IMG/VR virus record: IMGVR_UViG_3300032435_000001
DNA: 64,000 nucleotides
Direction: 5' to 3' (one strand)
DNA from: a virus
Below the pieces are notes generated by a model that was not told the origin of the DNA, did no database searches, and was given only the letters and a program-made list of their open reading frames with translations. Position 1 is the stretch's first letter, and every line of letters begins with the position of its first letter. The position numbers and the translations under genes are program-made. This document shows positions 26,473-46,537 of the stretch, one piece after another.

Positions 26473-26511
26473 AGTTTTAGTTTATTAATAAATACTTTGG
26501 TTTTTCATTTT

Positions 26512-27246
26512 CTACAAAAACCCACCATCTATTTTACTATTCTTTATCAAACTATATAATTTTTTAAACCTTCGCATTGAAACTCTAATGTCTTTGGTGG
26601 TTAAATTAGTATAATCCCTTATAGTTGCTAAGACAGTATTCTTATTATATTTAGAACCACCTTCCATACTTTCAAATATCCCTTCCCAATTACCTAGTAT
26701 TACAATTAACGCCTCACCAACTTTACGTTCATTCTCAGTAATCTTCTTCTTACCTTCAATACCATCTAACTCACTTTGTATTTCAAGAGATACGCTCTTG
26801 ATGAAATCATCTAAGGTGTATTCAGTATCGTCTAATAAATAAGTCATATCTTCCCTTTCTTCTAAGTAAGTTGATGATTTATCGAAAGACGTATTTTGTC
26901 TCATTTCCTTATCATCTTTAATTAAAAGACCTAATATATAATTTTTACAAATAGTACCATAATAGGAGTAAGCTTTCTTACCTTTACCAACCTCAAATCT
27001 ATCCGATTTCCATATTAAATGTGAAACAGTATCAGCATGTAATTCCTCATAAGTTATACCTTTACGGTATAACTTATAACGTCTTATTATTGATTCAACC
27101 ATTTTATTAATGGGCCCCATAAGAAACTCATTATAAATCAAATTTCTATCAGCGATATCTTTAGATTCAATAAATCTAACCACAGCTTTTTCTTCTTCTG
27201 GACCGAAATACAAATCATTTTTCCTTTTTCGACCTCTACTACTCAT
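26512..27246 (-). CDS. Phage sigma factor (T4 gp55-like late sigma)
   Basis: KMVESIIRRY..Y.ELHAD......KSDRFEVGKGKKAYSYYGTICKNY resembles sigma region 2 of gp55-type proteins. Confidence 0.7.
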   Translation of the reverse strand: MSSRGRKRKNDLYFGPEEEKAVVRFIESKDIADRNLIYNEFLMGPINKMVESIIRRYKLYRKGITYEELHADTVSHLIWKSDRFEVGKGKKAYSYYGTICKNYILGLLIKDDKEMRQNTSFDKSSTYLEEREDMTYLLDDTEYTLDDFIKSVSLEIQSELDGIEGKKKITENERKVGEALIVILGNWEGIFESMEGGSKYNKNTVLATIRDYTNLTTKDIRVSMRRFKKLYSLIKNSKIDGGFL

Positions 27247-28046
27247 TAAACCATTTCTTTACTATACGTAATATTCCTATCATTTGTGTGGTAGTATTCT
27301 TTTTTAGCAGTTGCCATCCACCATCTAGCCTCATCAATAGATAAATTATTTTTATAATCATTAAAAAGAGAACCTTCTCTTTGGTTGACATGTTTATAAC
27401 CAAATTTAGGTATTACCATAATATTAACAGATAAATTTACCATTCTTAAAAAGAATTCATAAATAAAAGTTAACTTCATACTAGCTTTCAAACCACCATT
27501 TTCCTCGTAAATAGATTTTTTCATAACCATACCACCAAAATTAAAATTTTGATACTTTAATAAACAGTTAATATCTAGTTGACCCATTATATCTGAAAAC
27601 TCAGCTGCCCATACAGCTTCATTAGTGAAACCAATAAACTCTTCTTTAGCATTTACATCAACAATAACAGGTAAGAATACCCCAACATCACCATAAACTT
27701 CTTTATACTTAACAACATTATCAAACCAAATATTAGAATACTCATCATCTAACTCTAGGATTGAAAACCATTCGGTTTTTGATTTACTAACACCTAAATT
27801 TATTTGTGATGAGAAATCGGTTTTACCTTCATTCTTAACTATAGTAACATTTAAATCTTTAAAATCAAACCCTTCTAAGTATGTTAACGCCTCACTATTA
27901 ATTGGTGTTACTACAATTAGACCCTCTGGTTTAGTTTTTTGGTCTAAAATAGATTGTACTGCTCTACCAAATAAAACTTTAGTTTCATCCGTTAACTCAT
28001 GTATTGGTAAAATTACTGAAATACCATTTTTATTTTCTTTAATCAT
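27246..28046 (-). CDS. Glycosyltransferase family 2 (GT-A)
   Basis: ISVILPIH, AVQSILDQ, INLGV, ILELDD. Confidence 0.85.
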   Translation of the reverse strand: MIKENKNGISVILPIHELTDETKVLFGRAVQSILDQKTKPEGLIVVTPINSEALTYLEGFDFKDLNVTIVKNEGKTDFSSQINLGVSKSKTEWFSILELDDEYSNIWFDNVVKYKEVYGDVGVFLPVIVDVNAKEEFIGFTNEAVWAAEFSDIMGQLDINCLLKYQNFNFGGMVMKKSIYEENGGLKASMKLTFIYEFFLRMVNLSVNIMVIPKFGYKHVNQREGSLFNDYKNNLSIDEARWWMATAKKEYYHTNDRNITYSKEMV

Positions 28047-29148
28047 TTTTCTCTAAGTTTAATTCTTCCGACTCTAACATACGTTCAAAGTCTTTAATTC
28101 TATTACTAACCAAACCTTCAAAAACTTCTTTAACTTTTAAAGTTTGATTATCGGTTGTGTAAATATTTTTAGTTGTTTCCATACCCTCATACAAAGCATT
28201 TGGTATAGAATCTTCCATCCATAACTTAATATACGTTGCGATTAGTTCTGGGATATTTAAAACATTATTAGTCCAAATACCATTATCTTTAATATCTAAA
28301 ACACCTTCAGTCTCAATTTCCATCCACTCTGGAACTAAGTTAGGTATTTTACCAATAACTGGTGTGTTTGACTGGATAGCTTCTAATGGGAATGTTCCGA
28401 AACCAGATACATCATCAACCCAAACAGCTAAACAAGCTTCACTTAATTCTTTAGCGAATTCCGTTCTTGGTAAACCTCTCAATTCTTTGAATGTAACCCA
28501 TTTATACGCTGGGTATTGTAAATAGAATGATTTAGCTATTTTAAGAGCATCTGATTGGTCTCTAGTGTGAATTGCTATAACTGGTATTTTAATTTTTTTA
28601 GTGTCTTTAAAATACTCTGGAATCGAAACTGGTATAACGTGTGTTTTAATACCACTAAAGATACTCTTTAAGTATTCACCTTGTTTTTCACTAGTGGTGA
28701 TAACATCATTAAACCCAAAATCAGTGTTCCATTTCTTACCTGGTTGTAGTAATTCAAAAATATAGTTATAACTTTGAGCCATGACAATTTTTTTACAAGG
28801 GAAAGCTTTAACTTGGTCCATAACATTAGCAAAAACCTCAGGGATTATAATGAAATCACTTGATTTAATGTTTATGCTTTGCGATGTAATTGAAGTGTGA
28901 GGTAATTTCATATACTCTTCACCCAACCAACTAGAAACTCCAGTATATTCATCTTTTTCGTGTAATATAACAGCGTTATACCCTAAATTATTTAATATTT
29001 TAACATTCTCATAAACATTAGCAATACCAGCCGTTGGGTTACCCATCGTGTCTAAAACAAAGAAATATAAAGAAAAGTCTTTATTTTCTAAATGTTGTAT
29101 AACTTCATTAATTTGCTTATTTTTTTCTCCTAATTCCATACTATTCAA
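28039..29148 (-). CDS. Glycosyltransferase, GT-B fold (GT4-like)
   Basis: IIIPE, SGFGTFPLEAIQSNTPVIG. Confidence 0.8.
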   Translation of the reverse strand: MNSMELGEKNKQINEVIQHLENKDFSLYFFVLDTMGNPTAGIANVYENVKILNNLGYNAVILHEKDEYTGVSSWLGEEYMKLPHTSITSQSINIKSSDFIIIPEVFANVMDQVKAFPCKKIVMAQSYNYIFELLQPGKKWNTDFGFNDVITTSEKQGEYLKSIFSGIKTHVIPVSIPEYFKDTKKIKIPVIAIHTRDQSDALKIAKSFYLQYPAYKWVTFKELRGLPRTEFAKELSEACLAVWVDDVSGFGTFPLEAIQSNTPVIGKIPNLVPEWMEIETEGVLDIKDNGIWTNNVLNIPELIATYIKLWMEDSIPNALYEGMETTKNIYTTDNQTLKVKEVFEGLVSNRIKDFERMLESEELNLEKND

Positions 29149-29497
29149 TTATATTTAAAACTTTATATTCAATTAACGTGTTAAAAGCGATTATCTCACC
29201 AACAGTAAAATTATCAAAACCTACTTTCCCCAATGAATCTGCTTCCGATTCACTATCCATTAATTTTTGTATCATTTGCATTAATATCTCATACCTAAAA
29301 CCATCGATAACCCTAGGTTTAGTAAAATGGTTAGTAACCACTTTTTTACCAATTAATAAACCATCACTACCGAAAGTTTCCTTAACTTCACTTTCACTAC
29401 CATCACCAGCTTTTAAAGATGGGTCACCACTTGTTAACATTGTGTTTAATTGCTCAAAATCAATAAACAATTTTTCACCTCCAATTTCTAAATACAT
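29141..29497 (-). CDS. Hypothetical protein
   Basis: 118-aa ORF, overlap-coupled. Confidence 0.7.
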   Translation of the reverse strand: MYLEIGGEKLFIDFEQLNTMLTSGDPSLKAGDGSESEVKETFGSDGLLIGKKVVTNHFTKPRVIDGFRYEILMQMIQKLMDSESEADSLGKVGFDNFTVGEIIAFNTLIEYKVLNIIE

Positions 29498-29498
29498 A

Positions 29499-30074
29499 TT
29501 AATTTAAAATTTTATTTTGCATCTCCTCTGATTCAATAAAGTCAATTATACTATCAACTTGGTAATCGGATTCGATATTTTCGTTATAACTAGTGTTTAC
29601 TTTAATTGAGATTTTATTCTCAGGTTTCAATTTCAACGCTTCTGGGTTTGCTGTGATTAATAAATCAATACCATCCCATTTATCTTCCAATTTCGTGACG
29701 AATTTAATCGTTTTAAAACTAGCGCCTAATTTAGATAAGAAGAATAAAGTTGATGGGATACTTTTACCAAACTCTTTTGATACCAATATAATCTCATGCT
29801 CACCCTCATCTTCAATGTCTAATATAAATTTATTTAATTTTGTAAATAAATTATCATGTGATTGGTCGGCCATACCAAAAATCTCTAACGATGCCTCAAC
29901 ATAAAGGAAATCATTAAGCCCATTATCCTTATCAAATTTAAAATACTTAGATAAATCAAAATCAGTCATTTCTAAATCCTTCAATTCCATTTCCTCAATG
30001 TATTTAGAATATGTGTAGACTAATTGACCAGTAAAATCTCTTAAAACATCGTTTAGTGTAATTCCTATTTTCAT
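29499..30074 (-). CDS. HAD-fold 5'(3')-deoxyribonucleotidase-like protein with degenerate catalytic motif
   Basis: MKIGITLNDVLRD (DxD replaced), IILVS, YNEN. Confidence 0.6.
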   Translation of the reverse strand: MKIGITLNDVLRDFTGQLVYTYSKYIEEMELKDLEMTDFDLSKYFKFDKDNGLNDFLYVEASLEIFGMADQSHDNLFTKLNKFILDIEDEGEHEIILVSKEFGKSIPSTLFFLSKLGASFKTIKFVTKLEDKWDGIDLLITANPEALKLKPENKISIKVNTSYNENIESDYQVDSIIDFIESEEMQNKILN

Positions 30075-30078
30075 ACTA

Positions 30079-30108
30079 AATATATAATTAAATTATGGTG
30101 TAAGTAAA
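30079..30108 (-). promoter_or_regulatory. Class II promoter (TTTACT...TATATT) for the HAD-GT-GT-sigma operon
   Basis: TTTACT 30108-30103 and TATATT 30084-30079 (18-nt spacer). Confidence 0.5.
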
Positions 30109-30110
30109 GT

Positions 30111-31046
30111 TTACCAAGTGAATTTTTTACGTATGTTGAAAATAAACGACTCGAATTTAGTAGGTATCACTACTTTAGTAGGTAACACCCCTTTAGGTGT
30201 GGCCCTTTCATTTAAATTAAGTTTCACAACTTTAGTTGGTTTCAAATTCTCAACATCATCTAAATCATACCTATCTAAAATCTTAGCTATTATAGCGTGT
30301 CTAACGATATCACCTTTTGTGAATTCAAAGAAATCAACTTCTGGTAAACCATTAAGAATTTTTATTACATGATACAAACCACTTTCATGGTAGTCCCTAA
30401 ATTTATCAGATTGTCTTAAATCACCAGTAATTATGAATTTTGAGTTATCACCAATTCTAGTTAAAAGTGTCTTCATTTGACTTTTAGTTAAATTTTGAGC
30501 TTCTTCTAAAACTAAAATTGTGTTATCGATAGTTTTACCCCTTAAAAACCCAATTGGTTCAACTTTAAGAATCTTACTATATTCTAATTCAAGTCTATTA
30601 TGGTAACCAACTAACTTATCAATAATGTCCATAGATGAAGCCAAATGTGGTTCTAACTTTTCTTTTAGATTACCTGGGATGAAACCTAGATTTTCTTCCG
30701 CTTCAACCGCTGGTTTAACTATAACTAAGTTATGGTATTTAGTTGGGTTGGTTTGTAATAAATTAATAGCCTTACCGATAGCAGTGTAACTCTTACCAGT
30801 ACCAGCTGGACCGTAAGCGATTAAAATATCCTTAACACCAATTAAATTGATAAAATCTTTTTGTTTAGAGTTTCGACACTTTAAATTTACCTTAGTAGGT
30901 AATATTTCATTAATCGTGCGAATTGTAAAATCCTTTTCGGGTAAATCTAAACTAGTTTCCTTTTTGGGTTTACGCTTATTGGACTCCCTAGTTGTAGATT
31001 TCGTTGTTGTAGAACTAATAGTTCCACTTTCTTTTTTTCTATTCAT
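30111..31046 (-). CDS. phoH: PhoH family ATPase
   Basis: GPAGTGKS, KPAVEAEENLGFIPG, FLRGKT, EEAQN, LTRIG, TGDLRQSD, DIVRH. Confidence 0.95.
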   Translation of the reverse strand: MNRKKESGTISSTTTKSTTRESNKRKPKKETSLDLPEKDFTIRTINEILPTKVNLKCRNSKQKDFINLIGVKDILIAYGPAGTGKSYTAIGKAINLLQTNPTKYHNLVIVKPAVEAEENLGFIPGNLKEKLEPHLASSMDIIDKLVGYHNRLELEYSKILKVEPIGFLRGKTIDNTILVLEEAQNLTKSQMKTLLTRIGDNSKFIITGDLRQSDKFRDYHESGLYHVIKILNGLPEVDFFEFTKGDIVRHAIIAKILDRYDLDDVENLKPTKVVKLNLNERATPKGVLPTKVVIPTKFESFIFNIRKKFTW

Positions 31047-31074
31047 AATTAAATCATATAATTTTTATAAAACT

Positions 31075-31103
31075 AATATAATTACACTTTATCGAGTAGT
31101 CAA
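31075..31103 (-). promoter_or_regulatory. Class II promoter TTGACT-N17-TATATT
   Basis: Exact layout upstream of phoH. Confidence 0.6.
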
Positions 31104-31105
31104 GT

Positions 31106-32053
31106 CTATTTAATAATTTTATTATCGTATTTAAACTCTAATGACTCATTTAGATACGCATTAGTCACATCCTCACCATTTATTAAGGCCCTAGCTTTAA
31201 ATTTAACAACGTAAAAACCATTGTAGCTAATTGTTTTATCATATTCAACAATTTCATACTCGTAATATAGGTTGTCATCACTACCAATCGTATTAGAGGA
31301 TAGGAAACTTATTTTATTAATAAAGAAAAAACTTAACTTAATACCCGTTAAAGCCTCTTTTAGTGATTTAATTAGGAAAACAGTTTTCCTATTACCATAA
31401 TCTGGGTATTTTGAGATGTACAACTCTAATAGGAAGTTACCGTCCTCCATGTCCCTAACAACCATTTTATCAGTGTAAGTTTCAAGATTAAAAATATCTA
31501 CGGAATCCCTATCAATTTTAATAGGTCTACAAGTTTTCACGTTAGAAACATAATTATCATTTGATAACACACCTAAATTATTTGGATTCAAAATATCGGT
31601 ATCACTATCGTATGGTTTATAAACCTTAGCATCAATTTCAGTGAAACCACCAAAATCTAAAGTCTCCTTAGTACTAAGAGTTATCTCACCATTATTAACC
31701 ACTAAAATAACTTTGTGGTTATCAAAATCATCAACCTTAACCTTATCTAATTTATGTCTATTAGTATTAGTGGTCTTAGTTATTGGTAGTCCATCTAAGT
31801 CATAACCAATGATTTGAGTTTTTAGATTAACACTTTTTTTAATAACCTTGTACATTCTCCACCTCAATTCCTTAACCTCCTCAGTTACCTCACCATTTAT
31901 TAAGGAATCTGACAACCTACCTTGTGAAAACCTATTATGAGAAGCATCTATTGAATCCATTGAATCCCCAGTGTTATTAATAGCATTACCCTGAACTTTA
32001 TTTAAAGCTAATGCAATCATACCTAATTTCCTTTTAAACCATTTTCCCATCAA
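31106..32053 (-). CDS. Hypothetical protein
   Basis: 315-aa ORF; GEVTEEVKELRWRMYKV. Confidence 0.7.
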   Translation of the reverse strand: MMGKWFKRKLGMIALALNKVQGNAINNTGDSMDSIDASHNRFSQGRLSDSLINGEVTEEVKELRWRMYKVIKKSVNLKTQIIGYDLDGLPITKTTNTNRHKLDKVKVDDFDNHKVILVVNNGEITLSTKETLDFGGFTEIDAKVYKPYDSDTDILNPNNLGVLSNDNYVSNVKTCRPIKIDRDSVDIFNLETYTDKMVVRDMEDGNFLLELYISKYPDYGNRKTVFLIKSLKEALTGIKLSFFFINKISFLSSNTIGSDDNLYYEYEIVEYDKTISYNGFYVVKFKARALINGEDVTNAYLNESLEFKYDNKIIK

Positions 32054-32965
32054 TTAATTTATTTACCATTTTGTTATAAAAATAACTTTTTATTATAGTT
32101 TCCACATTATCCAATTCACCCCAATAAAATTGTTTCCCTTTTAAGTGGGTTATGAATTGTTTATTTTCACCCTCTTTAAAATCTCGACTAGTTATACCTC
32201 TACCTAATGTTATAACATTATTAGTATAAATCAAGGATTCCAACAAAACGTTTGAGTTTATACCAATGATTTGCTCAGCGTATGGTAAATAGTGGTGAAC
32301 ATTCTCATATACTTCAATAAAACCTTCCCTATGTTTTAAATCACATTTACCCATGGGATGTTTTTTAAATAACACTTTCACATCACTACCCAATTTTAAA
32401 TTATCTTGAACATGTTGTAAAAACTCATCCATCTTTTAAAAGGTGAGTTTTGCGTTATATTAGTATCTTTTTCATCTTGTAAAGGAATGAATATAAACCT
32501 ACCATTATATAGTGGTGGTTTTATATAAGTTTTTTTAATCTCATTGAAACACTCCTCATTAAAAGGTGATAAGTCACAAGTAAGGTTTTCAGAATTACCA
32601 TTAACACCTTTAAAATCAAAAAATAATGTTTTGTAGTGGTCGAAAAAACCTAACTCAGCGAATACCATTTTTTCTTCTCCAAATTCTTTAATAATTTCCC
32701 TATCACCCTCACTACCCCCATTCCAAGTGAATACCCATTCTGGGTTAAACTTTTTAGCTTCACTTAGTTGAACCCCATTAACTAATATGGAGTTGAAATT
32801 ATTCTTATAAATTAATGGGTTTTTAGCTTCCGAATGATTCCATAATAAACATTCATGACCTAATTTTTCTAAAGTCCTAGCTAAGTTAGAGAATAACATA
32901 TTAATGAATTGCCATCTGTATGGTCTATCTAAATTGCCAACCCCTACATGGAATAATATTCTCAT
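32034..32965 (-). pseudogene. Capsule-synthesis (KpsS/KpsC-like) glycosyltransferase split by a one-base frameshift (ORFs 32396..32965 and 32034..32432)
   Basis: N-part FTWNG, FAELGF, D.KGVN, FIPLQDEKD; C-part KKHP, INSNVLLESL. One extra A in CCTTTTAAAAGATG gives ...SPFKKMDEF... Confidence 0.7.
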
Positions 32966-33429
32966 AACCTATCTTTGATTTTTTTCACTGGTACGCCACC
33001 CCAAATTTCATTTTTAGGGATATCTTTATTCACGAATGAATTAGCACCAATGATTGAATTATCATTAATTGTTGTATTATAACCAATAGTTATGTTGGCA
33101 CCTAACCATACATTATCACCAATTACGATATAACCTCTATCTAAAGGTTGTCCAACTAATGGTTTATCGTTAATTACATGTGATGATGTTATATATGATA
33201 TTCTAGGTCCTAATAAGGACCCGTTACCTATTTTTAGACTACCACTACACTGTATGAAGGAAAAGTAACCAATAACGCTATCTTTACCAATTCCTAACAC
33301 CCCATTTGACATCTCAATAATTGAATAATCTCTAATCTCACTACCAGCGGAAAGTATGACCTCACCACTACCAATAAAAATTACCGTTGATGCGATTTTA
33401 CCACCGTTATTTGTTATTTTTATAGCCAT
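32962..33429 (-). CDS. Hexapeptide-repeat (LbH) sugar O-acetyltransferase
   Basis: ITSSH, IGDNVWLGAN, IIGANSFVNKDIP.NEIWGGVP. Confidence 0.9.
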   Translation of the reverse strand: MAIKITNNGGKIASTVIFIGSGEVILSAGSEIRDYSIIEMSNGVLGIGKDSVIGYFSFIQCSGSLKIGNGSLLGPRISYITSSHVINDKPLVGQPLDRGYIVIGDNVWLGANITIGYNTTINDNSIIGANSFVNKDIPKNEIWGGVPVKKIKDRL

Positions 33430-34148
33430 TATAACCTTTTTATCTCTTTAAACGTTGGTTTTATCAGACTAATATTTAAATTAGGTTTAAGGTGGTGCTT
33501 GAAACCCATATCTACAAATTTATGAATATCCAACATACCATTTTCTTTTAAATATTCCTTACTTTTACCTTCGTAATGTATAATAGGCGAACTTAATATA
33601 TAAGCCATTTTATAACCACTGTCATACACATTTTGAAAAATGAAGTCATCACCACAATAAGTTCTTAGTGCGTGTGGTATAGGTTTGAATAAATCTCGCC
33701 TAATCGCATAGTCCCACCCTTGCATGTGTATATTATTTAACATCACTTCGTAACGTAATTCAGGTATCTCCTCACTAAAATTAGGGTGGTTAGTTGAGTG
33801 AACCGCAATACCAACATTGTTTTCCTTTTGAAATAACTCTATTGTGTCCTTAACAAAGTTATTACTGATTCTAACATCATTATTTAAGAAACATAATATT
33901 TCATCATCATATTTTTCATAGAACCAATTCCATACGTGGTTTAATGGGGTATTAACCTCATTTCTAACCACATCAATTTGTTTGAACTTAGAAACCAACA
34001 TATCAAGATATTCTTTAGTACCAAGTTCACTAGAATTTTGGTCAACTAGCGTTATTTTAAATGAGCTATAATTTTGATTTAATAAATCATTTATACAATC
34101 ATTTGTATAAGCTATGTTATTCAAGTTTACTACTAATATGTTAAGCAT
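33429..34148 (-). CDS. Glycosyltransferase family 2
   Basis: ILVVNLN, VDQNS, FLNNDV, YCGDD. Confidence 0.88.
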   Translation of the reverse strand: MLNILVVNLNNIAYTNDCINDLLNQNYSSFKITLVDQNSSELGTKEYLDMLVSKFKQIDVVRNEVNTPLNHVWNWFYEKYDDEILCFLNNDVRISNNFVKDTIELFQKENNVGIAVHSTNHPNFSEEIPELRYEVMLNNIHMQGWDYAIRRDLFKPIPHALRTYCGDDFIFQNVYDSGYKMAYILSSPIIHYEGKSKEYLKENGMLDIHKFVDMGFKHHLKPNLNISLIKPTFKEIKRL

Positions 34149-35022
34149 TAAAAGTTTCTTTATAAATTTTTATTATATCATCCACAACTAAAGAGCATTT
34201 GAATTTATCAACATCATACGGTATTGGTTCTAAACTGAAAGAGTTAATCTTACCATCCTTATTTATATCATACACCCAACCAGGCTTACCACATAACCAA
34301 CCCTCAATAGTTGTTCTACCTAATAATATCCCAGCTGTCTCATCACAACCTTTAAAGTATTTATCAACATCCCATGTTTGTGGGAAATGTTTAACGTGTT
34401 CATAACCTTTAGCTAAGTTTTTAACAAGAACACCATGTTCTTTACCGACTATCCATAACATATTACCATCATCGTGAGTTTTTTTAATCAAACTCACTAA
34501 CATAGGTTCCCTTAAAGTGTGAATAGACCCAACAAATAAAACTATTTTTTTTTCATTAATTTTATTTTCTTGATTATCAAGGTTAAACCTTTTATCATCT
34601 ATCGGGTTATAAATAACTGTAATTAACTCGTCAGGTACCCCATATTGGTTAATCAAATGTTCTTTAATTTTAGGTCTAATCGCTATGTATTTTTTAATCA
34701 TATCGTTAAAAATTGGTGCTTCTAAAGATATTAATTCAGAATGTATACCACACACTATTGGGGTGTTTACATATTTAGTAACTACATGTTTACAAACTAA
34801 CCCTTGATTAATGTGTAGTAAGTCAAATTCAACATCTGGGAGGTTATTTAACTGGTAAAGTTTAACACCATTATTCATAGCTTTTAAAGCTATATCCCCA
34901 CCAAAATTTGAGGCTACGCTAACATCAAAACCCCTCTCAATTAAACCTCTAGATAATTCATAAACGTATAATTCAGAACCAGTAAACGAATTAAAATTAA
35001 CACACGTTATCAGTATTCTCAC
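34141..35022 (-). CDS. Glycosyltransferase family 4-like
   Basis: TGSELYVYEL..GL, VIYNPID..RF, VLFVG, GRTTIEG. Confidence 0.85.
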   Translation of the reverse strand: MRILITCVNFNSFTGSELYVYELSRGLIERGFDVSVASNFGGDIALKAMNNGVKLYQLNNLPDVEFDLLHINQGLVCKHVVTKYVNTPIVCGIHSELISLEAPIFNDMIKKYIAIRPKIKEHLINQYGVPDELITVIYNPIDDKRFNLDNQENKINEKKIVLFVGSIHTLREPMLVSLIKKTHDDGNMLWIVGKEHGVLVKNLAKGYEHVKHFPQTWDVDKYFKGCDETAGILLGRTTIEGWLCGKPGWVYDINKDGKINSFSLEPIPYDVDKFKCSLVVDDIIKIYKETFNA

Positions 35023-36545
35023 TAGCCAAGATTTTTAATATATTTATGTAATTTCGTATTTTTAATCATAAAAGGTAATAATCGCTCTTTATAATCAATT
35101 TGGATTTTAGCCATAGCTTCTTTGGATTTACCTCTTGTGAAACTTTCATAGTGATAACAAACAGCGTTACCCACAAAGTAATTTTTTTTATTCATTAAAA
35201 GACATCTAAGATTTAGTTCAACATCCTCAAAACACTCGATATATCCCTCATTAAAACCACCTATAACGTTAAATAAATTTTTATTAATTAACACAAAGGC
35301 ACCTGTATTACCTATAACTTCAGATACATCCCCATAATTATAATTCGTGTCTAGACCTAAATGTGTGAACACTAACCCACCATTTTGGTCCACAAAACTT
35401 AAAATACCAGCATGTTGTATTTTATTATTCTCAAAATGTAATCTAGCACCAACAGTGCCAACATGGTTTTTTTCTTTTTGATGAATCCTAACCATATTTG
35501 TAATCGCATCATTAATCATCACAATATCATTATTACAAAATAATAACAATTCACAATCATCAGATAGGTGATTTTTAACAACATCATTATTTATTTTAGC
35601 GAAATTATAATAATCATATTTGATTAGTTTAACATTTCTACCAGGATTTGAGTCAATAAACTTCTCAATTTCATCAATTTCCATTTCACTTGAACCAGTG
35701 TCAGCGACTAATAATTCGAAATTTTTATATTTTGTTTTATCGTAAATAGAGTTTACGCAATTAAATAATAAATTAAGATTACCCTTTGTTGGGATAATAA
35801 TATTTATTTTAGGCTCTTTTTTAATACTATAAACTTTATCATTATAAAATATTTCACCCTTTATCCCCAAAGGTATATTATCGGACCATTTTTCAATAAA
35901 TTTAACTCTATTATCTTCCCATTGTTGATTTACTTGACCTATCGATTTATGGGTAATTCTAATGTCAAACATAACACCAACTTTACAACCATTAATATGA
36001 TTACCAAAGGTAAAATCTAAATCATAAAAATGGAATCCCTTAACATCAGAATTAAACTCATACTTTAACCTATCTTTTTTAACAGCGAAGAATAAACCAT
36101 CAACCACCACACTCTGTAGTACTTTACTTCCAAAACTATTAGAATATTTTGATTCCCATTTTTTACCTTTATGTTCGTGATTAACAATCCCCAATGTTAG
36201 ATTTTTTTGGTCCCACCACTTACCACTTTTAGTGATTGAGGTTGTACCCACAACACCTAACACACCAAAATCAGTATCCTCAAAATGTTTAACTAATCTT
36301 TTTCCCCAATTTTTAGTTTCTAATATGATATCATCATGACAAAACACCACGATATCATGTTTAGCGTTTTTTAATTCGCCACCATAAACATCGGTTAGTG
36401 ATTTACCACCATTAAACCATTTTGATGTTGGGTCTGTGTTATTAATAACTTCAATAATTTCATAATCTTTAACACCAATAGTATTTTTAAGATGTTTAAT
36501 AAATTCTGGTCTACTTTCTTTTGATGAGAATATTACACTTATCAT
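35022..36545 (-). CDS. Two-domain GT2 glycosyltransferase
   Basis: Domain 1 VFCHDDI, VDGLF, GFHFYDLD; domain 2 IIIPTK, DTGS, FCNNDI, VGARL, FEDVELNLR, HYES.TRG. Confidence 0.9.
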   Translation of the reverse strand: MISVIFSSKESRPEFIKHLKNTIGVKDYEIIEVINNTDPTSKWFNGGKSLTDVYGGELKNAKHDIVVFCHDDIILETKNWGKRLVKHFEDTDFGVLGVVGTTSITKSGKWWDQKNLTLGIVNHEHKGKKWESKYSNSFGSKVLQSVVVDGLFFAVKKDRLKYEFNSDVKGFHFYDLDFTFGNHINGCKVGVMFDIRITHKSIGQVNQQWEDNRVKFIEKWSDNIPLGIKGEIFYNDKVYSIKKEPKINIIIPTKGNLNLLFNCVNSIYDKTKYKNFELLVADTGSSEMEIDEIEKFIDSNPGRNVKLIKYDYYNFAKINNDVVKNHLSDDCELLLFCNNDIVMINDAITNMVRIHQKEKNHVGTVGARLHFENNKIQHAGILSFVDQNGGLVFTHLGLDTNYNYGDVSEVIGNTGAFVLINKNLFNVIGGFNEGYIECFEDVELNLRCLLMNKKNYFVGNAVCYHYESFTRGKSKEAMAKIQIDYKERLLPFMIKNTKLHKYIKNLG

Positions 36546-36567
36546 ATTTTTTTATAAATTTGACTTA

Positions 36568-36596
36568 AATATAATTAATTTAAAATTTAAAGTAAA
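36568..36596 (-). promoter_or_regulatory. Class II promoter TTTACT-N17-TATATT for the glycan operon
   Basis: Exact layout 22 nt upstream of the ATG at 36545. Confidence 0.6.
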
Positions 36597-36797
36597 TGTT
36601 AATTAAAAAAAGCCACATAAGGATATGTTGGTTTTAATTAGAATATGATAATAGTTTAATGTGGACCCAAACTAAATAACCCACCCAATAAATTAGATTT
36701 TATAAATGAAGTTTTTTTTAAAAAATAATCGTAAAACATTTTCTCATGTTTTTATGTTTTACATATTTTTTTTAATATTTATAACAAAGTAAAGTCT

Positions 36798-37046
36798 ATG
36801 CCTAAAAATTTTTTAAAAAGTGCTCAAGTCAACACTTACGAAGTAGATAAATCAAATATTTATGGTAAATCTATCGGTATCAGTAAAACCGTAAGTGGTT
36901 CTGGTACAGGTGGTACTGATAACCCCAATGGTTCCAATGGTTCCAATGGTATCGATGATAATAACATAACAAATGTACCATTTATTTTGACCGAAAATAA
37001 TTTTTATTTACTTCAAGAAAATGGTTTTAAAATTAATTTAATTTAA
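36798..37046 (+). CDS. Small virion-associated protein
   Basis: C-terminal ILTENNFYLLQENG.KI repeat; late motif upstream; precedes the fibre gene. Confidence 0.6.
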   Translation: MPKNFLKSAQVNTYEVDKSNIYGKSIGISKTVSGSGTGGTDNPNGSNGSNGIDDNNITNVPFILTENNFYLLQENGFKINLI

Positions 37047-37048
37047 AA

Positions 37049-39256
37049 ATGCCAAACTTAAAAATTAGTCAACTACCTACGGGTCAAATTAACCCACAAA
37101 CGTTAATACCAGTTGTCACCAATGGTGTAACTTCAAAAATTAATATTAATGAATTAATTAATTCGGTAATACAAGTCATAAATACCGATGGTTCTTCTGT
37201 TAATATAACATGGGAAGGGTTATGGTCAGAAAATACTACTTATTCGGTTAATAGTGTGGTTCAATACGATAATTCTTCTTATATATGTGTTTCACCTATT
37301 ACAAATACTAATAATAATGAAAATCCGAGTCCAAGTATGGATACAGTCAATTGGGCTTTATTAGCGTCACAAGGTATACAAGGTGTTCAAGGGGTGGAAG
37401 GTATACAAGGTATACAAGGTATCCAAGGCGTTGCAGAGGAGGTAACCGTAAAGACTCTTGGTTTTGTTTCGGGGGAATGGAGTGAGGCACCTTTTAAAAG
37501 GCCATTAATTTTTGATATAAACACAGTGATAACTGGTCAATTTGGTTCTCAATTTAAACTACCTTCAGAGAGTGTTGTAGGGAGAGAAATTATTGTTCAA
37601 AACCCAAACAATATACCTGCTGAAATATTCCCATTTAATAATGGGGTTACAATAACAAGTACGCAAGTAAGCGGTCAGTCTGACCGATATTCAATTGGTT
37701 TTAATGAAAGAATAAGATTTATTTATTTAGGTAACGATAATTGGCTTTCTGAATTTATAAATACGGTAGCTCCAATTGTTGTCACTCCTTTTGTGCCCGA
37801 AACAGAGGGTTCTCGTGATGCGGGTACTTTTGAACAAGCTGAAACTTCTGCTAAAATTATTAGAAACTTTACTAGGGTAAACTTAGAAAATGATATTTCC
37901 ACTTACGTAGGCCTTTCCGCTTTAAACGTAGCGGTTGGCTCAGTTTTTACTATTTTAAATAAAAGTCAAACAAGGGTTTTAAATGTTAGACTTTTGGATG
38001 ATGCTACGGTGTTAATGTCTAATGGGTCTTATTCAAACCCAATTTACGAAATACAACCAAATACCGCTTGTAAATTTACAATGTCAGAAACAACTAGTGG
38101 AAGTGAGAAACTTTATTTGACTGAAATAATATATCCTCTTGGTATAAACCCAGAGATAATAGTTGCTCCCGTAAAGACACTTGGCTTGGTTAGAGGTTTT
38201 AGTAATGTAGACCCTTTTAGAAGACCATTAATTTTTGATATAAACACAGTGTTAGCTGGTCAATTTGGTTCTGAATTTAAACTACCTGACCTAACTTTGG
38301 AGACTGATATAGGTAGGGAAATTATTGTTCAAAATAATGAAGTTGCACCTGCTGAAATATTCCCATTTAATGGTGGTGTTACAATAACGAGTACGCAAGT
38401 AAACGGTCAGTCTGACCGATATACAATTGATTTCAATCAAAGAATAAGGTTTATTTATCTAGGTAACGATACTTGGCTTTCTGAATTTATAAATACGGTA
38501 GCCCCAGTAGTCCCAGCAGTTATACCAAATAAAACAACAGGTGAAGTACAATTTTTAACATTTTCTGCTCAACCTTTACTTTTACCCTTTGATATAAATA
38601 CAGTAAATTCAAATGATGATGGTAATCAGTTTAGACTACCTTTGTTGCCAAATTCAGACATAGGAAGAGAAATAATTGTTCAAAATAGGGAAATAGGTCA
38701 AGTGTTTATATATACCACCAATGATACTCCTACAATTACCTCCGCTTTTATAGGGGGGAATTCAAATCAATACATTATTAAATTTAACGAAAGAATTAGA
38801 TTTATTTATTTAGGGAGTACAAATTGGCTTGCGGAAATTATAACTACAGTTGTCCCAGTTGCCCCTGTGACAAAAGTTCAAAAAACCACAATCACAGCTG
38901 CTCAAGTTTTACAGCTTTTCACAACGCCTATTGCGATATTAAATAGTGGTGTAGAGGGTAAATGGATATACCCTACAAATATTTACATAAAAAGAAATGT
39001 AGGTGATAGTTATATTTTAGCAACCAATACATTTAATATTATTAACGATTTTGGTGATAGTATAGGGGTTAATATTAATCCGAACCCACTAACGAGTAGT
39101 GCCGTTGGATATACTCAGCACAGCATAAATATCGCTCAAAATGTAATAGGAGGTGCATCAAATACTTTATATAGATTAAGTGCAAATACGGGAAACCCAA
39201 CTTTAGGTACGGGAACGTTAGATGTTTATGTGACTTATAATGAAATAACACTTTAA
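37049..39256 (+). CDS. Fibre/decoration protein: KISQLP anchor, CBM5/12-like module, short collagen stretch, repeated ~110-aa domains
   Basis: MPNLKISQLP, W.GLWSENTTY...VVQY..SSY.C, (GxQ)n, repeated FDINTV...REIIVQN...RIRFIYLG...WL.E. Confidence 0.7.
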   Translation: MPNLKISQLPTGQINPQTLIPVVTNGVTSKININELINSVIQVINTDGSSVNITWEGLWSENTTYSVNSVVQYDNSSYICVSPITNTNNNENPSPSMDTVNWALLASQGIQGVQGVEGIQGIQGIQGVAEEVTVKTLGFVSGEWSEAPFKRPLIFDINTVITGQFGSQFKLPSESVVGREIIVQNPNNIPAEIFPFNNGVTITSTQVSGQSDRYSIGFNERIRFIYLGNDNWLSEFINTVAPIVVTPFVPETEGSRDAGTFEQAETSAKIIRNFTRVNLENDISTYVGLSALNVAVGSVFTILNKSQTRVLNVRLLDDATVLMSNGSYSNPIYEIQPNTACKFTMSETTSGSEKLYLTEIIYPLGINPEIIVAPVKTLGLVRGFSNVDPFRRPLIFDINTVLAGQFGSEFKLPDLTLETDIGREIIVQNNEVAPAEIFPFNGGVTITSTQVNGQSDRYTIDFNQRIRFIYLGNDTWLSEFINTVAPVVPAVIPNKTTGEVQFLTFSAQPLLLPFDINTVNSNDDGNQFRLPLLPNSDIGREIIVQNREIGQVFIYTTNDTPTITSAFIGGNSNQYIIKFNERIRFIYLGSTNWLAEIITTVVPVAPVTKVQKTTITAAQVLQLFTTPIAILNSGVEGKWIYPTNIYIKRNVGDSYILATNTFNIINDFGDSIGVNINPNPLTSSAVGYTQHSINIAQNVIGGASNTLYRLSANTGNPTLGTGTLDVYVTYNEITL
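37448..38506 (+). repeat. Direct repeat of about 330 nt (37448-37774 and 38171-38506)
   Basis: Long identical runs, e.g. ccattaatttttgatataaacacagtg and tggctttctgaatttataaatacggtagc. Confidence 0.9.
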
Positions 39257-39273
39257 GATTTTAAGATTTTAAT

Positions 39274-39316
39274 AAAAAAAACTGCGAGAAACTTATGAAT
39301 CCCGCAGTTTTTTTTT
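39274..39316. terminator. Bidirectional terminator
   Basis: A8-ctgcg...cgcag-T9 between convergent genes. Confidence 0.7.
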
Positions 39317-39325
39317 ATGTTAAAA

Positions 39326-39475
39326 TTAAATAATAGATTTTAAGACATCCCCTTTTCTGTAAGCCATTACATCAAACGTAACTCCAAATGAGGAGTTATC
39401 ATTTCTAGTTTTGTGGATAAGTTTACCATTCATGTGAATGTAAGTCTCGTTATTTTTTTTTATAATCACTACCAT
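39326..39475 (-). CDS. 49-aa hypothetical protein (not in ORF track)
   Basis: MVVIIKKNNETYIHMNGKLIHKTRNDNSSFGVTFDVMAYRKGDVLKSII, starting 5 nt after the dut stop. Confidence 0.55.
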   Translation of the reverse strand: MVVIIKKNNETYIHMNGKLIHKTRNDNSSFGVTFDVMAYRKGDVLKSII

Positions 39476-39480
39476 AGCTT

Positions 39481-40053
39481 CTATTTTACGCCAGTACTAC
39501 CAAAACCCTTATCACTTCTATCAGTTTTAATGTTAATTGAATCTACTTTTACTAGCTCAACATAATTACTACCCATAGCTTTACTTATAACACCTTGCGC
39601 TATTCTATCACCGTTTTGAATTGTGAAGTCTTCTTTACCTAAATTAATTAGTATAATACCTACTTCACCACGGTAATCGGAGTCGATGGTGCCTGGTGAG
39701 TTTAAAACTGATATACCGTTTTTTAAAGCTAACCCACTTCTGGACCTAATTTGTATCTCATGATTTTCAGGTATCTCAAAAAATAAACCAGTTTTAATTA
39801 AACCCCTATCACCAGAGCGTAATGTAATTGGTTCTGATGTATGTGCTCTTATATCAAAACCAGCAGCACCACTTGTCTCATAGTTTGGGTCCTCATTATT
39901 TGATTGGTTTAAGAACTTAAAAACGTTTTCGGTTTCACTTAAAACTGCAAATTCTTTTAAGAAATCCTTATGACTATAGTTACTACTCAAATCTAAAGAT
40001 TCGAATAATTTTGCCTTAATACCTTTTAAACTTCTATTCACTTTTTGTTTCAT
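39481..40053 (-). CDS. dut: Trimeric dUTPase
   Basis: AAGFDI, RSGLA, GTIDSDYRGE, GDRIAQ, R.DKGFGSTG. Confidence 0.96.
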   Translation of the reverse strand: MKQKVNRSLKGIKAKLFESLDLSSNYSHKDFLKEFAVLSETENVFKFLNQSNNEDPNYETSGAAGFDIRAHTSEPITLRSGDRGLIKTGLFFEIPENHEIQIRSRSGLALKNGISVLNSPGTIDSDYRGEVGIILINLGKEDFTIQNGDRIAQGVISKAMGSNYVELVKVDSINIKTDRSDKGFGSTGVK

Positions 40054-40636
40054 TATTTAAACTAATCTTATGATTTATTTGTTCTTCGGCAATAGCTAAT
40101 TGAATAGCTTGTTTTAATATTGTACCTAACATTGATGAATGGTAGTTAGCTTGTTTATCGGTATCATCTTTTGAGAAATTAAGTATAGCTTGATACTCAT
40201 CATCAGTAAAAGTAACACCATTATCCATAGCGTATTTGACGGACCTTTCCCCAACACTCATGGAGGTTGAATCATTTACGAATTCATACATTTTGCCTTG
40301 GTTAGTTCTATGGCATTCCGATAAACAAGGTTTATATAATTTAGCTTTACCTATTTGATGTAAGCAGCAAACTTTTATAAGTGATGCTACGTCAATAACC
40401 ATACCCTTATCTTTTGGTAATACATCATTAATTAAAAACGCATATTTAGTGACCCTTAGAGTGTGGTCAACTAACCCACCTTCAAAAGCATTGTGTAAAT
40501 CACTCATTGTCGAAGCTGGTGCTTCCATAAAATCAGCTCCCAAAAAATCCATTAACTCTTTAGTCATAAAACCATATTTTTCACCTGTTGCGAAATAATG
40601 TTTAATGTTTTTAACTACCCTATCCTTATCTAACAT
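40034..40636 (-). CDS. HD-domain-like protein (YhaM-like) with HD replaced by HQ
   Basis: APAS...H.AFEGGLVDHTLRV, LHQIGK. Confidence 0.7.
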   Translation of the reverse strand: MLDKDRVVKNIKHYFATGEKYGFMTKELMDFLGADFMEAPASTMSDLHNAFEGGLVDHTLRVTKYAFLINDVLPKDKGMVIDVASLIKVCCLHQIGKAKLYKPCLSECHRTNQGKMYEFVNDSTSMSVGERSVKYAMDNGVTFTDDEYQAILNFSKDDTDKQANYHSSMLGTILKQAIQLAIAEEQINHKISLNNETKSE

Positions 40637-40678
40637 AATTTATTTATTTATTCACTCTGTTATTTATTAGACCAGAAA

Positions 40679-40700
40679 ACCCTCTAATTAATTAGAGGGT
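40679..40700. repeat. Perfect 22-bp palindrome
   Basis: accctctaattaattagagggt. Confidence 0.85.
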
Positions 40701-40739
40701 GGGAGGTTACTATTTATAATTCACCTAATTCTTATCTTT

Positions 40740-42035
40740 CTACAAACTTACTAATTTTTTTTGATAATTCACAACTAAATTAAGGTAATAATTTCGTCTA
40801 TCTGTAGTTACACTATCTAATGAAAATTTATCTGATACCGTATCATGTAAATTATTACCAATTTTAGTTATTAATTCTGGGTTATCGACTAATAGTTTTA
40901 TATATTTAAACCAATCTTTATGGTTATTACTATGTTTAACTAAAAACCCATTACCCTTATCATTTACAACACCACCTTTTTCAAAATAATTTATAACATC
41001 TAATTTATAAGGTCCAAAATCCTGAGCTATGATAGGTTTTTTAAACATTCCAGACTCTATGACTTTTAATTGACTCTTCATTTTATTAAAAACGTTATCA
41101 CCTAATGGAGCTAATGATATGTCAAATAAATTATAATTTGAAGCGTAGTTATTAACTGGTTTAGTCCAAACTCGTCTGTATGGTTCGTTAATAACATTTG
41201 GGTATTCCTCATTTGAAAATTTCATTAAGAAACTTTTATACTCATCACTAATAGTAGTATAATTATCTGTAAATATTTTCTCATATTTATACCAAACTGA
41301 TTCTATTGGTGAAATCGCTCTTTGTGTTGTAGTATTATTAACATTATCAATATTTGTTGCGTATCCATTTAAATCAAAACCACATAAAACAAATTGGATT
41401 TTATCCAATAAATTAGCGGCACCCAATTTATTTACTAACCCACTTAATAAATCAATATCTTTCTCATGACTACTACCACCTAACCAACCAATTCGTATCT
41501 TTTTAGATTCTTCTGGTTTAATTAAGAATTGCTTTTCATTTTTATCAATAGCATTAGGTATTACCGACACGTTTTTATTAAACTTAGTAATCTCATCAGC
41601 GAAAATTTGTGTGGTTGTAAGTACGTTATCAGCGTTTTTTATATTTTTTAATATCTTTTTGTCTAATTTATAATGTTTAAATAAGTTAAAAGCTGGGTGG
41701 TGAGTACCTGGTGCCCAATAATCATCAATATCCATAATTGATATAATACCTAATGATTTAAATTTTAAAACTAATTCTTCCATTTTATCATAATCACCAA
41801 TATTTCTATGGTAATGTATAATATCATACTGTTTTAAGAATTCATCACTATTGATATTTGGCTCGAAATCTATGTCGATGTGAAATTCATCTGGGTACAT
41901 TTTCTCTAGGTTTAAATGTGGTTTTGTAGAACGGAAATAACCCACCCCAGTTCGGTCACTAGGTACTACAAGTAATCTAATTTTATGACTAATTGGAGAG
42001 TTTTCGTTTTCAATTTTTGTTATCATATTTCCCAT
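40740..42035 (-). CDS. Glycosyltransferase, GT-B fold
   Basis: GVGYFR..P, DIDDYW, VIPNAID, IGWLGGSSH..D, DISLAPL...FN..KS.LK..E. Confidence 0.88.
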   Translation of the reverse strand: MGNMITKIENENSPISHKIRLLVVPSDRTGVGYFRSTKPHLNLEKMYPDEFHIDIDFEPNINSDEFLKQYDIIHYHRNIGDYDKMEELVLKFKSLGIISIMDIDDYWAPGTHHPAFNLFKHYKLDKKILKNIKNADNVLTTTQIFADEITKFNKNVSVIPNAIDKNEKQFLIKPEESKKIRIGWLGGSSHEKDIDLLSGLVNKLGAANLLDKIQFVLCGFDLNGYATNIDNVNNTTTQRAISPIESVWYKYEKIFTDNYTTISDEYKSFLMKFSNEEYPNVINEPYRRVWTKPVNNYASNYNLFDISLAPLGDNVFNKMKSQLKVIESGMFKKPIIAQDFGPYKLDVINYFEKGGVVNDKGNGFLVKHSNNHKDWFKYIKLLVDNPELITKIGNNLHDTVSDKFSLDSVTTDRRNYYLNLVVNYQKKLVSL

Positions 42036-44416: not shown

Positions 44417-44433
44417 AATAAATAGCTTTTTTA

Positions 44434-46534: not shown

Positions 46535-46537
46535 TAT

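Follow-up and report, generated by a model that had tools for sequence, protein, structure and literature searches.

Four conserved glycosyltransferase units frame an exchangeable sugar cassette in an uncultured jumbo phage distantly related to T4

The IMG/VR virus record IMGVR_UViG_3300032435_000001 contains a locus rich in genes of glycan synthesis. It extends from position 27246 to position 42035 of the stretch of 64,000 nucleotides that was analyzed here (the window; positions are counted from its first nucleotide) and includes genes of nucleotide metabolism and a tail-fiber gene. The source record has 94,460 bases, a G+C content of 30% and a completeness, as estimated by CheckV, of 27%. 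Genes for a T4-type portal, a capsid protein of the Gp23 type, a prohead protease, a sheath and a tube protein are present. No GenBank phage has a capsid protein more than 42-43% identical to this one, and GenBank phages yielded no match in a megablast search with the glycosyltransferase (GT) region or in a tblastn search with the protein encoded at 28039-29148. Some of the related IMG/VR records have lengths of 345-362 kb, and terminal repeats are present in three of these. The size of these relatives and the T4-type genes identify the window as a fragment of an uncultured jumbo myovirus that is distantly T4-like. The original prediction had named eight enzymes at the locus, namely six GT genes, a KpsS/KpsC-family gene and a hexapeptide acyltransferase. 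All of them were found, and all are encoded on the minus strand:

27246-28046, minus strand: conserved GT2 enzyme (GT-A fold; Pfam Glycos_transf_2, E 7.4e-7)
28039-29148, minus strand: conserved GT-B enzyme (GT4-like) of 369 residues, assigned by fold and profile
32034-32965, minus strand: split PF05159 gene, consisting of open reading frames (ORFs) 32396-32965 and 32034-32432
32962-33429, minus strand: left-handed beta-helix (hexapeptide) acyltransferase (Pfam Hexapep, E 1.5e-11)
33429-34148, minus strand: cassette-specific GT2 enzyme of 239 residues (Pfam Glycos_transf_2, E 2.4e-13)
34141-35022, minus strand: GT4-like GT-B enzyme of 293 residues (Pfam Glyco_transf_4, E 1.9e-13, N-terminal domain only, residues 15-145)
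35022-36545, minus strand: two-domain GT (Glyco_tranf_2_5, E 2.1e-27, residues 14-219; Glycos_transf_2, E 3e-12, residues 249-378)
40740-42035, minus strand: conserved probable GT-B enzyme of 431 residues at the outer flank (phrog_7162 'glycosyltransferase', E 2.5e-43)

A comparison with related loci divides these genes into a conserved and a variable group. With the 28039-29148 protein 79 related loci were retrieved. Those that measured 11 kb or more (42 loci, most of which extend just 10 kb from the GT-B gene) were compared with the proteins of the window. In 40 to 42 of the 42 loci the sigma-like gene (41), the GT2 gene (42), the GT-B gene (42), a gene for a 191-residue protein (42) and phoH (40) follow each other in this order and are succeeded by baseplate-type genes. 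The GT-B protein retains 38-66% identity across the 42 loci. The cassette genes are rare in the same loci: the PF05159 halves and the GT2 gene at 33429 occur in none, the acyltransferase gene in one, the GT4-like gene in six and the two-domain GT gene in eight. The 431-residue GT is present in all five complete or near-complete relatives with 56-62% identity. There it is encoded on the far side of the island, upstream of the GT-B gene, at a distance of roughly 14-18 kb, compared with about 13 kb in the window. The gene order of the four complete relatives is uniform and consists of the 431-residue GT, small genes, the dUTPase in the same position as in the window, metabolic genes on the same strand (GMP-reductase-like, DHFR, and an AAA protein or a homing endonuclease) and a Glyco_tranf_2_5 gene. 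The latter is the first cassette gene in all four, with C-terminal partners that vary.

The upstream 9 kb were annotated in 12 relatives (124 ORFs). In eleven of them this site holds a sugar cassette, and its gene set differs in each. These cassettes encode a GDP-mannose dehydratase together with a second epimerase, enzymes of the families GT11, GT10, GT17 and GT25, UDP-galactopyranose mutase, UDP-GlcNAc 2-epimerase, DegT aminotransferases, FdtA, FkbM and TylF methyltransferases, nucleotidyltransferases and UDP-glucose dehydrogenase. In the relative L036 (1235-5965) the sugar cassette is replaced by five DUF4116-repeat genes on the opposite strand while the conserved GTs are kept. Four GT units are thus conserved, the 40740 GT, the Glyco_tranf_2_5 domain of the 35022 protein, the 28039 GT-B and the 27246 GT2, and they frame an exchangeable cassette. 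The locus had originally been regarded as one assembly line. It is not uniform in this sense, and the stretch is also interrupted by phoH, a nucleotidase-like protein that looks dead, a dUTPase, an HD protein and a tail-fiber pair on the opposite strand. The genes that accompany the enzymes are the following:

26512-27246, minus strand: probable gp55-type late sigma factor (weak matches), in 41 of the 42 loci
29141-29497, minus strand: 118-residue protein with no family match in Pfam or PHROG, matched in 15 of the 42 loci
29499-30074, minus strand: 191-residue protein with a HAD fold according to its predicted structure, first gene of the GT-B/GT2/sigma operon
30111-31046, minus strand: PhoH-like ATPase (Pfam PhoH, E 8.3e-61), in 40 of the 42 loci
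31106-32053, minus strand: 315-residue protein between the cassette and PhoH, with no match in Pfam, PHROG or NCBIfam and tblastn matches in 15 of the 42 loci
36798-39256, plus strand: opposite-strand pair of an 82-residue gene and a 735-residue tail-fiber gene (phrog_5073, E 2.5e-16)
39481-40053, minus strand: dUTPase (Pfam dUTPase, E 2.1e-28)
40034-40636, minus strand: HD-type phosphohydrolase-like protein of 200 residues (phrog_28876, E 7e-7; no Pfam match)

In the tail-fiber protein (37049-39256) a CBM_5_12-like start, which scores just below the cutoff, is accompanied by a short collagen-like run (GIQ/GVQ) and, within the chain, by three repeats of about 115 residues each. Its gene lies within the locus in the opposite orientation, behind a late-type motif. 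The pair 36798-39256 had no tblastn match in the loci of the 42 relatives, and its place is taken by the same-strand metabolic genes in all four complete relatives. For the 315-residue protein a search of the protein Atlas returned a low-confidence model and no usable match.

The three GT2 domains score above the PF00535 Glycos_transf_2 cutoff of 23.3 bits, with 29.7 for the 27246 gene, 50.8 for the 33429 gene and 47.3 for the C-terminal half of the 35022 protein. In the GT2 encoded at 27246-28046 the residues E98, D100, D101 and E102, which form an E-x-D-D-E acidic motif of the DXD type, are invariant among 31 sequences. The nearest NCBIfam models of the acyltransferase are WbbJ/WcaF-type O-acetyltransferases, all far below their cutoffs. 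The 431-residue protein matches the Pfam GT1 and GT4 families below the cutoffs; a four-sequence profile retrieved from the PDB only 5i45 (E 0.013), and a PDB search with the single sequence found nothing. It is therefore a probable GT-B enzyme by its sequence, on weaker grounds than the 28039 protein. A PDB sequence search with the double GT 35022-36545 likewise found nothing. None of the GTs nor the acyltransferase contains a hydrophobic 19-mer with a Kyte-Doolittle value of at least 1.6, in agreement with the predicted soluble, cytoplasmic nature of the enzymes. The cassette genes overlap or abut each other as a single operon. Nucleotide-sugar genes are not among them, and the cassette must therefore use the sugar-nucleotide pool of the host; NTP_transferase was not found in the 94 kb of the source phage and was present in one of the five relatives.

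In one relative (G001, C1:181765-184068) the homologue of the 431-residue GT lies within a reading frame of 771 residues and its match is split in two by an insert, possibly an intein. Outside the family, two copies with about 25% identity occur in a Phapecoctavirus (L087, Escherichia phage Mt1B1_P17, 45046-48190). Phapecoctaviruses contain four adjacent genes annotated as glycosyltransferases, two of which are these distant homologues; a search of the literature on GT function in Phapecoctavirus yielded nothing on the four-GT cluster.

The conserved GT-B protein (28039-29148) has no match in Pfam, PHROG or NCBIfam. Its structure, predicted from an alignment of 30 relatives (pLDDT 88, pTM 0.86), consists of the two Rossmann domains of a GT-B enzyme. 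The top Foldseek match was 8xsg, AmGGT of Actinobacillus minor (E 8.8e-15, TM 0.71/0.76), followed by GT4 enzymes near 1e-10. AmGGT was also retrieved from the PDB sequences by the profile (E 7.9e-13). The neighbors include BshA, sucrose-phosphate synthase, tetrahydrobiopterin glucosyltransferase and 7qsg. The invariant residues R196 and E256 align with the region of the UDP-binding R170 of AmGGT and with E231, the second glutamate of its EX7E motif. The first glutamate of this motif aligns with Ser248 of the phage protein, close to which lies an invariant D245. The occurrence of the protein outside phages was examined by scanning 185,579 prokaryote genomes with a pattern derived from the profile. 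The scan matched the core GT-B three times, and all three contigs (L088, L089, L090) display the phage gene order of GT-B, GT2, sigma and baseplate genes. Their labels are a Prochlorococcus single cell (L089), a Methanobacterium metagenome-assembled genome (MAG) and a Bacteroidales MAG. Binning artifacts may account for the two MAG labels, and the single-cell contig may provide a clue to the host of a related marine lineage. Within the limits of a scan by pattern, the conserved GT-B is restricted to phages. Phages with seemingly different hosts share this enzyme, which points to a conserved acceptor that belongs to the phage.

The operon of the GT-B gene begins with the gene of the 191-residue protein, for which AlphaFold2 predicted with a pLDDT of 93 a HAD fold that resembles 5'(3')-deoxyribonucleotidases (Foldseek 3bwv, E 4.9e-7, TM 0.65/0.73; 4yih, TM 0.67). 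A profile search of the PDB sequences with this protein found nothing. The N-terminal consensus is MKIGIxINEVLRDF; it reads I-x-I-N-E where active deoxyribonucleotidases presumably have the catalytic aspartates of their DxDGV motif. On the predicted model the protein looks like a catalytically dead, nucleotide-binding relative that has been kept as the first gene of the operon. Two GT genes had been described as translationally coupled to a late sigma gene. The genes of this operon are closely packed: the sigma and GT2 genes overlap by 1 nucleotide, the GT2 and GT-B genes by 8 and the GT-B gene and the gene of the 118-residue protein by 8. The label of a late sigma factor rests on weak matches (Sigma70_r2 E 0.01, below the cutoff; by profile, SigA E 0.013 and T4 gp55 E 0.85).

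The PF05159 gene consists of two ORFs in different frames that overlap by 37 nucleotides. The second ORF (32034-32432) matches Pfam Capsule_synth with an E of 0.15 and 12 bits, compared with a cutoff of 20. The first ORF (32396-32965) has 47 homologues other than itself, 44 of which are single proteins of 295-316 residues; a precomputed PF05159 match exists for 23 of the 47, and some of these are 66-69% identical. In a 303-residue homologue, residues 1-178 correspond to the first ORF (69% identity); the second ORF aligns with residues 179-303 (72%). The break falls between the positions corresponding to residues 178 and 179, where the homologue has a methionine. The gene is thus split by a one-base frameshift, with a usable internal start. 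The identical first ORF occurs on six contigs, which argues for a stable allele rather than a single assembly error, and the halves may work as two chains. Programmed frameshifting was considered and rejected: in the downstream frame a stop lies two codons ahead of the ATG, and no slippery heptamer was seen. The sequence contains the stretches PLQDEKD and KKHP, which we take to resemble the QxxxD and HP motifs of the PF05159 family. The assignment to PF05159 comes from the homologues. KpsS and KpsC transfer beta-Kdo to a lipid anchor. The full-length homologues of the phage gene share PF05159 with these capsule enzymes. Unlike them, the phage protein of about 300 residues is much shorter than KpsC and is split, and the window contains neither a transmembrane or lipid-related partner nor CMP-Kdo genes.

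Expression signals were sought by matching to consensus patterns. Each of the four transcription units in the region has upstream of it a site that conforms to the sigma70-like pattern TT[GT]AC[TA]-N15-19-TA[TG][AG][AT]T, and late-type motifs lie after the sigma gene and before the tail-fiber pair:

42085-42113, minus strand: sigma70-like site (TTTACT, 17-nucleotide spacer, TATGAT), 49 nucleotides upstream of the 40740-42035 GT
36568-36596, minus strand: sigma70-like site (TTTACT, 17-nucleotide spacer, TATATT), 22 nucleotides upstream of the cassette operon
31075-31103, minus strand: sigma70-like site preceding phoH
30079-30108, minus strand: sigma70-like site preceding the operon of the 191-residue protein
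26481-26494, minus strand: late-type promoter-like motif directly downstream of the sigma gene
36775-36784: late-like motif before the tail-fiber pair

Overall the sigma70-like pattern is not enriched, with 20 matches compared with 15.2 in shuffled sequences. The late-type motif TATTTAT[AT]A[AT][ATC]AAA matches 11 times in the 94 kb, ten times within 40 nucleotides upstream of a start on the same strand. It precedes terminase, baseplate, fiber and sheath genes and no GT gene. The T4 late-promoter word TATAAATA was also tried and discarded, as its 25 matches equal the expected 24.6. The 63-nucleotide divergent intergenic region 44417-44479 carries the late-type motif on both strands (44427-44440 and 44457-44470) and has, judged by its sequence, the look of two mirrored promoters that would serve 43913-44416 and the fiber gene 44480-46534. 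Class II promoters and expression ahead of the late genes had been predicted for the locus. The positions of the sigma70-like sites and the onset of the late motif after the sigma gene fit this proposal, which is qualified by the consensus matching and the weak assignment of the sigma factor.

Candidates for an acceptor of the glycan are encoded next to the locus:

44480-50888, plus strand: fiber-like late genes that adjoin the GT locus, candidate acceptors rich in [ST][GA]xT

The 553-residue protein of this block encoded at 46538-48199 contains seven [ST][GA]xT motifs, compared with 0.9 expected. Together with 21 homologues it forms a family in which all 22 members are enriched (6-18 motifs, 0.5-2.0 expected); some of the sites are kept in 22, 19 or 17 of the 22 proteins and others come and go. 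The neighboring 44480-46534 protein contains YadA-head repeats. Among 76 proteins of at least 100 residues, the six highest motif z-scores all belong to the blocks 43913-50888 and 62371-65069. Fiber-like late genes encode five of the six proteins; the remaining one, 43913-44416, is unannotated and has a single motif. In the source phage 43 proteins of the structural blocks contain 45 motifs (23.9 expected) and 41 other proteins contain two (7.0 expected), the most extreme contrast among ten motifs tried. When the final threonine was replaced by serine ([ST][GA]xS), the ratios of observed to expected were 1.13 for structural and 1.07 for other proteins; for the reversed motif they were 1.64 and 1.08. 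A similar distribution was obtained with one complete relative (472 ORFs), in which 29 structural homologues contain 128 motifs (37.8 expected) and 40 non-structural homologues contain three (7.5 expected). The motif-richest proteins of this relative are located in fiber-like clusters, one of them right beside the 431-residue GT. G-x-[TS]-small was also tried as a sequon and was not retained, and mucin-like substrates rich in serine and threonine were not found, the highest S+T fraction in the 94 kb being 0.21.

The absence of a flippase, a polymerase and a lipid-carrier initiator had been predicted from the window and extends to the family. Bac_transf, Glycos_transf_4 (WecA-type), Polysacc_synt (Wzx-type) and Wzy_C were each found in none of the five complete or near-complete relatives, whereas control genomes responded. 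The missing export genes do not exclude use of the lipid-carrier pathway of the host, because ordinary O-unit GTs also lack transmembrane helices. ThyA had been called an ordinary dUMP methylase, and this, too, held in five of five genomes (the window and four relatives), all of which have leucine at the position equivalent to L143 (LPPCH or LTPCH) and asparagine in the PFN sequence. According to PMC13326640, homologues that use dCMP have aspartate at N177, and hydroxymethylases and 5-hydroxycytosine (5hoC) synthases have aspartate or glutamate at L143. Each relative has one ThyA-family gene. Tet_JBP was found in none of five relatives, a family for which the control genomes were silent as well, and a C5-methyltransferase (DNA_methylase) in one of five. 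Known routes to a DNA base that can be glycosylated were not found across the family, nor was a base-activating enzyme. The ThyA of the window (622-1728) has 368 residues, with an insert of about 42 residues between the regions of the catalytic cysteine and PFN and a longer loop near residue 100. In the relatives the lengths vary from 328 to 442 residues, and the gene of G001 is in pieces with stops, perhaps because of an inserted element.

Inteins are present in several genes of the 94-kb record. Intein-splicing domains were recognized in the terminase (with a LAGLIDADG domain), portal and prohead protease (window 6084-10085, 10402-13767, 16011-17744) and in the ClpB-like ATPase (L001, 699-2177). 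The Gp23-type major capsid protein (19224-20972, 582 residues) matches T4-like capsid proteins in two pieces over 54-59% of its length and appears to hold a large insert, to which no intein model matched. DNA polymerase B (1486 residues) and the SNF2 helicase (928 residues) are far longer than their domains require. In PhoH of the relatives L014 (6984-8957, 658 residues) and L036 (7127-8851, 575 residues) a LAGLIDADG domain suggests an intein or the insertion of a homing endonuclease.

We tentatively favor a reading in which the locus encodes a cytoplasmic glycan pathway whose conserved part serves an acceptor of the phage itself, in the first place the virion (fiber) proteins. The four conserved GTs would lay a common inner glycan on virion proteins, most likely on the adjoining fiber-like proteins, and the cassette enzymes (the GT2 domain, the GT4-like enzyme, the GT2, the acetyltransferase and the split PF05159 protein) would add a strain-specific outer part. 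Expression of all these enzymes from the sigma70-like promoters would come before the structural genes are switched on by the late sigma factor. The nearest structure, AmGGT, is counted in favor of this proposal by analogy: it shares more than 50% identity with ApAgt, an enzyme that elongates glucose on adhesins glycosylated in the cytoplasm (PMC12159676). The original preference for virion glycosylation over serotype conversion and DNA glucosylation therefore still appears the best reading, with the reservations that we infer the acceptor, the order of the steps and the timing of expression, and that the motif signal arises in part from tandem fiber repeats. In its most specific form, which is speculative and rather doubtful, a family of T4-like jumbo phages of about 350 kb would coat its own tail fibers with a two-layer glycan. 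Four phage-only GTs would build the inner layer on threonine in the context hydrophobic-[S/T]-[G/A]-x-T-hydrophobic, an exchanged cassette would provide the outer layer, and the motif would be counter-selected in cytoplasmic proteins.

Several observations argue against glycosylation of the virion. Many of the [ST][GA]xT instances in the fibers recur within tandem repeats, spaced by 5 and 14-15 residues and flanked by hydrophobic ones, and a beta-solenoid fiber with a threonine ladder could show the same pattern without any sugar. Structural proteins are enriched in the reversed control motif, too, at 1.55-1.64 times the expectation, and [ST][GA]xS is equally depleted in the non-structural set of the relative (2 compared with 6.7 expected). 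The depletion of [ST][GA]xT in non-structural proteins rests on small counts, the two classes were drawn after the top motif proteins had been seen, and the two genomes are related and do not constitute independent samples. The sequon NxS/T gave no signal, with observed-to-expected ratios of 0.97 in structural and 1.01 in other proteins, and GT41 (PF13844, the HMW1C/NGT initiator) was found neither in six relatives nor among the window proteins. The neighboring genes of nucleotide metabolism and the probable early or middle sigma70-like sites fit DNA modification or host remodeling equally well, and comparable islands are read by their authors as devices of host-surface modification (PMC7029224, PMC12801897). 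In addition, the DNA available from the source phage amounts to 94 kb, an estimated 27% of the genome.

A modification of the host surface is somewhat unlikely as the function of the locus. The GTs would act at the cytoplasmic face on undecaprenyl-linked intermediates of the O-antigen, capsule or core of the host with the help of the host initiator, flippase, polymerase and ligase, thereby blocking superinfection or stopping the loss of progeny on infected cells. The families represented in the cassettes are those of lipopolysaccharide, O-antigen and capsule synthesis (GT11, GT10, GT25, GT17, FkbM, the GMD/GFS pair, Glf, WbbJ/WcaF-like enzymes and PF05159), the cassette is hypervariable as in O-antigen loci, and the sigma70-like sites would suit such a function. 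Since ordinary O-unit GTs likewise have no transmembrane helices, the missing export genes are not decisive. For islands of pelagimyophages and cyanomyoviruses this interpretation is the favored one (PMC7029224, PMC12801897). Arguing against it is the conservation of four GT units at 40-60% identity in contigs that are filed with very different organisms. Host O-units vary by strain, so that only an inner-core or carrier structure could provide a conserved acceptor on the host. Moreover, the core GT-B was encountered on phage contigs only, initiator, flippase, polymerase and ligase genes are absent from all five relatives, and the motif pattern of the fibers would have no role. It is also unlikely that conserved GTs and cassette serve different acceptors (for example the virion and the host envelope or a small molecule) or that part of the cassette is decaying cargo. 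The region has four separate promoter-like sites and transcription units with non-glycan genes interspersed, L036 keeps the conserved GTs with DUF4116-repeat genes in place of the cassette, and the PF05159 gene is split. Yet the cassette invariably lies between the conserved GTs at one and the same site, an indication of a single pathway. Its genes are arranged as one operon, and the identical split N-terminal ORF on six contigs represents a stable allele that may work as two chains.

Hypermodification of DNA, in which the GTs, above all the conserved ones, would sugar a modified base of the phage DNA and so evade restriction, is very unlikely. In its favor are the neighboring dUTPase, HD hydrolase, PhoH and nucleotidase-fold protein, the GMP-reductase-like and DHFR genes of the relatives and, again, the sigma70-like sites. 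The structural neighbors of the GT-B are the same as those of proven or predicted DNA arabinosyl- and glucosyltransferases (PMC13326640, Table 1), mono- to trisaccharides of diverse kinds occur on phage DNA (bioRxiv 10.1101/2023.12.21.572611), and UDP-galactopyranose mutase, which is used by Rhizobium phage RL38J1 (PMC13326640), is present in the cassettes of two relatives. Against this stand the lack of an enzyme that creates a hydroxyl handle, the leucine and asparagine of the single ThyA and the results for Tet_JBP and C5-methyltransferase; for the source phage these negative results cover the 94 kb, about 27% of the genome. At least seven GT domains, together with the acetyl-, methyl- and fucosyltransferases of the relatives, exceed the DNA glycans described in the cited papers.

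Islands of GT and lipopolysaccharide genes in aquatic T4-like phages are already known from the literature. In pelagimyophages (PMC7029224) and in the cyanomyoviruses S-SCSM2R, S-SCSM1 and P-SSM2 (PMC12801897), a non-syntenic island of GT and nucleotide-sugar genes (GT2, GT10, GT11, GT25, epimerases) lies between conserved modules beside tail-fiber genes. The phage family studied here likewise has a non-syntenic island of GT and sugar-nucleotide genes between conserved modules, adjoined by the fiber genes 37049-39256 and 44480-50888. It differs in that four GT units, which phages of about 350 kb throughout the family have conserved, frame the island, and in the position of the island at the junction of nucleotide-metabolism genes with late sigma and baseplate genes. 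The likeness concerns gene content and arrangement. The authors of those studies favor modification of the host O-chain. Virion glycosylation of the Che8 type in mycobacteriophages (Freeman et al. 2023, as cited in PMC12619734 and PMC12801897) offers a parallel insofar as soluble phage GTs would modify the structural proteins of the phage in the cytoplasm. There, phage type and host group are different, the jumbo phage has far more GTs, and the known glycans are placed, according to these citations, at the C-termini of capsid and tail-tube subunits, whereas internal threonine motifs of fibers are the candidates here.

The N-glycosylation of adhesins by NGT and Agt in Actinobacillus is related through AmGGT (8xsg), the nearest relative of the core GT-B by profile and fold and a soluble alpha-1,6-glucosyltransferase that elongates glucose chains (PMC12159676). 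The phage GT-B is only 18-19% identical to AmGGT, and neither GT41 in six relatives nor an NxS/T signal was found. The phage systems of DNA hypermodification include glucosylation of hydroxymethylcytosine in T-even phages, arabinosylation of 5hoC in RB69 and DLP3 (PMC13326640) and 5mYOX glycans (bioRxiv 10.1101/2023.12.21.572611). They share with the locus a GT-B with the same structural neighbors among nucleotide-metabolism genes of a T4-like phage; they differ by a base-activating enzyme, which was not found here, where ThyA is canonical and the complete relatives have no second ThyA or TET. Moraphages (PMC12619734) are also large uncultured aquatic phages with several GTs in the core genome (four core GT orthologous groups). 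They are described as lying outside the T4 groups, unlike the present phage with its T4-type portal, capsid and sheath genes. New in the present analysis are the four-unit frame, the AmGGT-like core GT-B, the family-wide exclusion of known base-glycosylation routes and export genes, the PF05159 frameshift and the naming of candidate acceptors.

Few unexplained features of large aquatic phages are as conspicuous as their GT-rich islands, which have been interpreted in publications as a means of changing the host O-chain or of protecting the DNA. The analysis separates four conserved, phage-restricted GT units from an exchangeable cassette and names the fiber-like proteins encoded at 44480-50888 as candidate acceptors. 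If the virions are glycosylated, virion glycosylation would extend from mycobacteriophages to T4-like phages, and variation of the glycan may be part of the evolution of host range or of evasion of defense. A two-layer glycan on the fibers, if it exists, would be the virion counterpart of the bacterial O-antigen.

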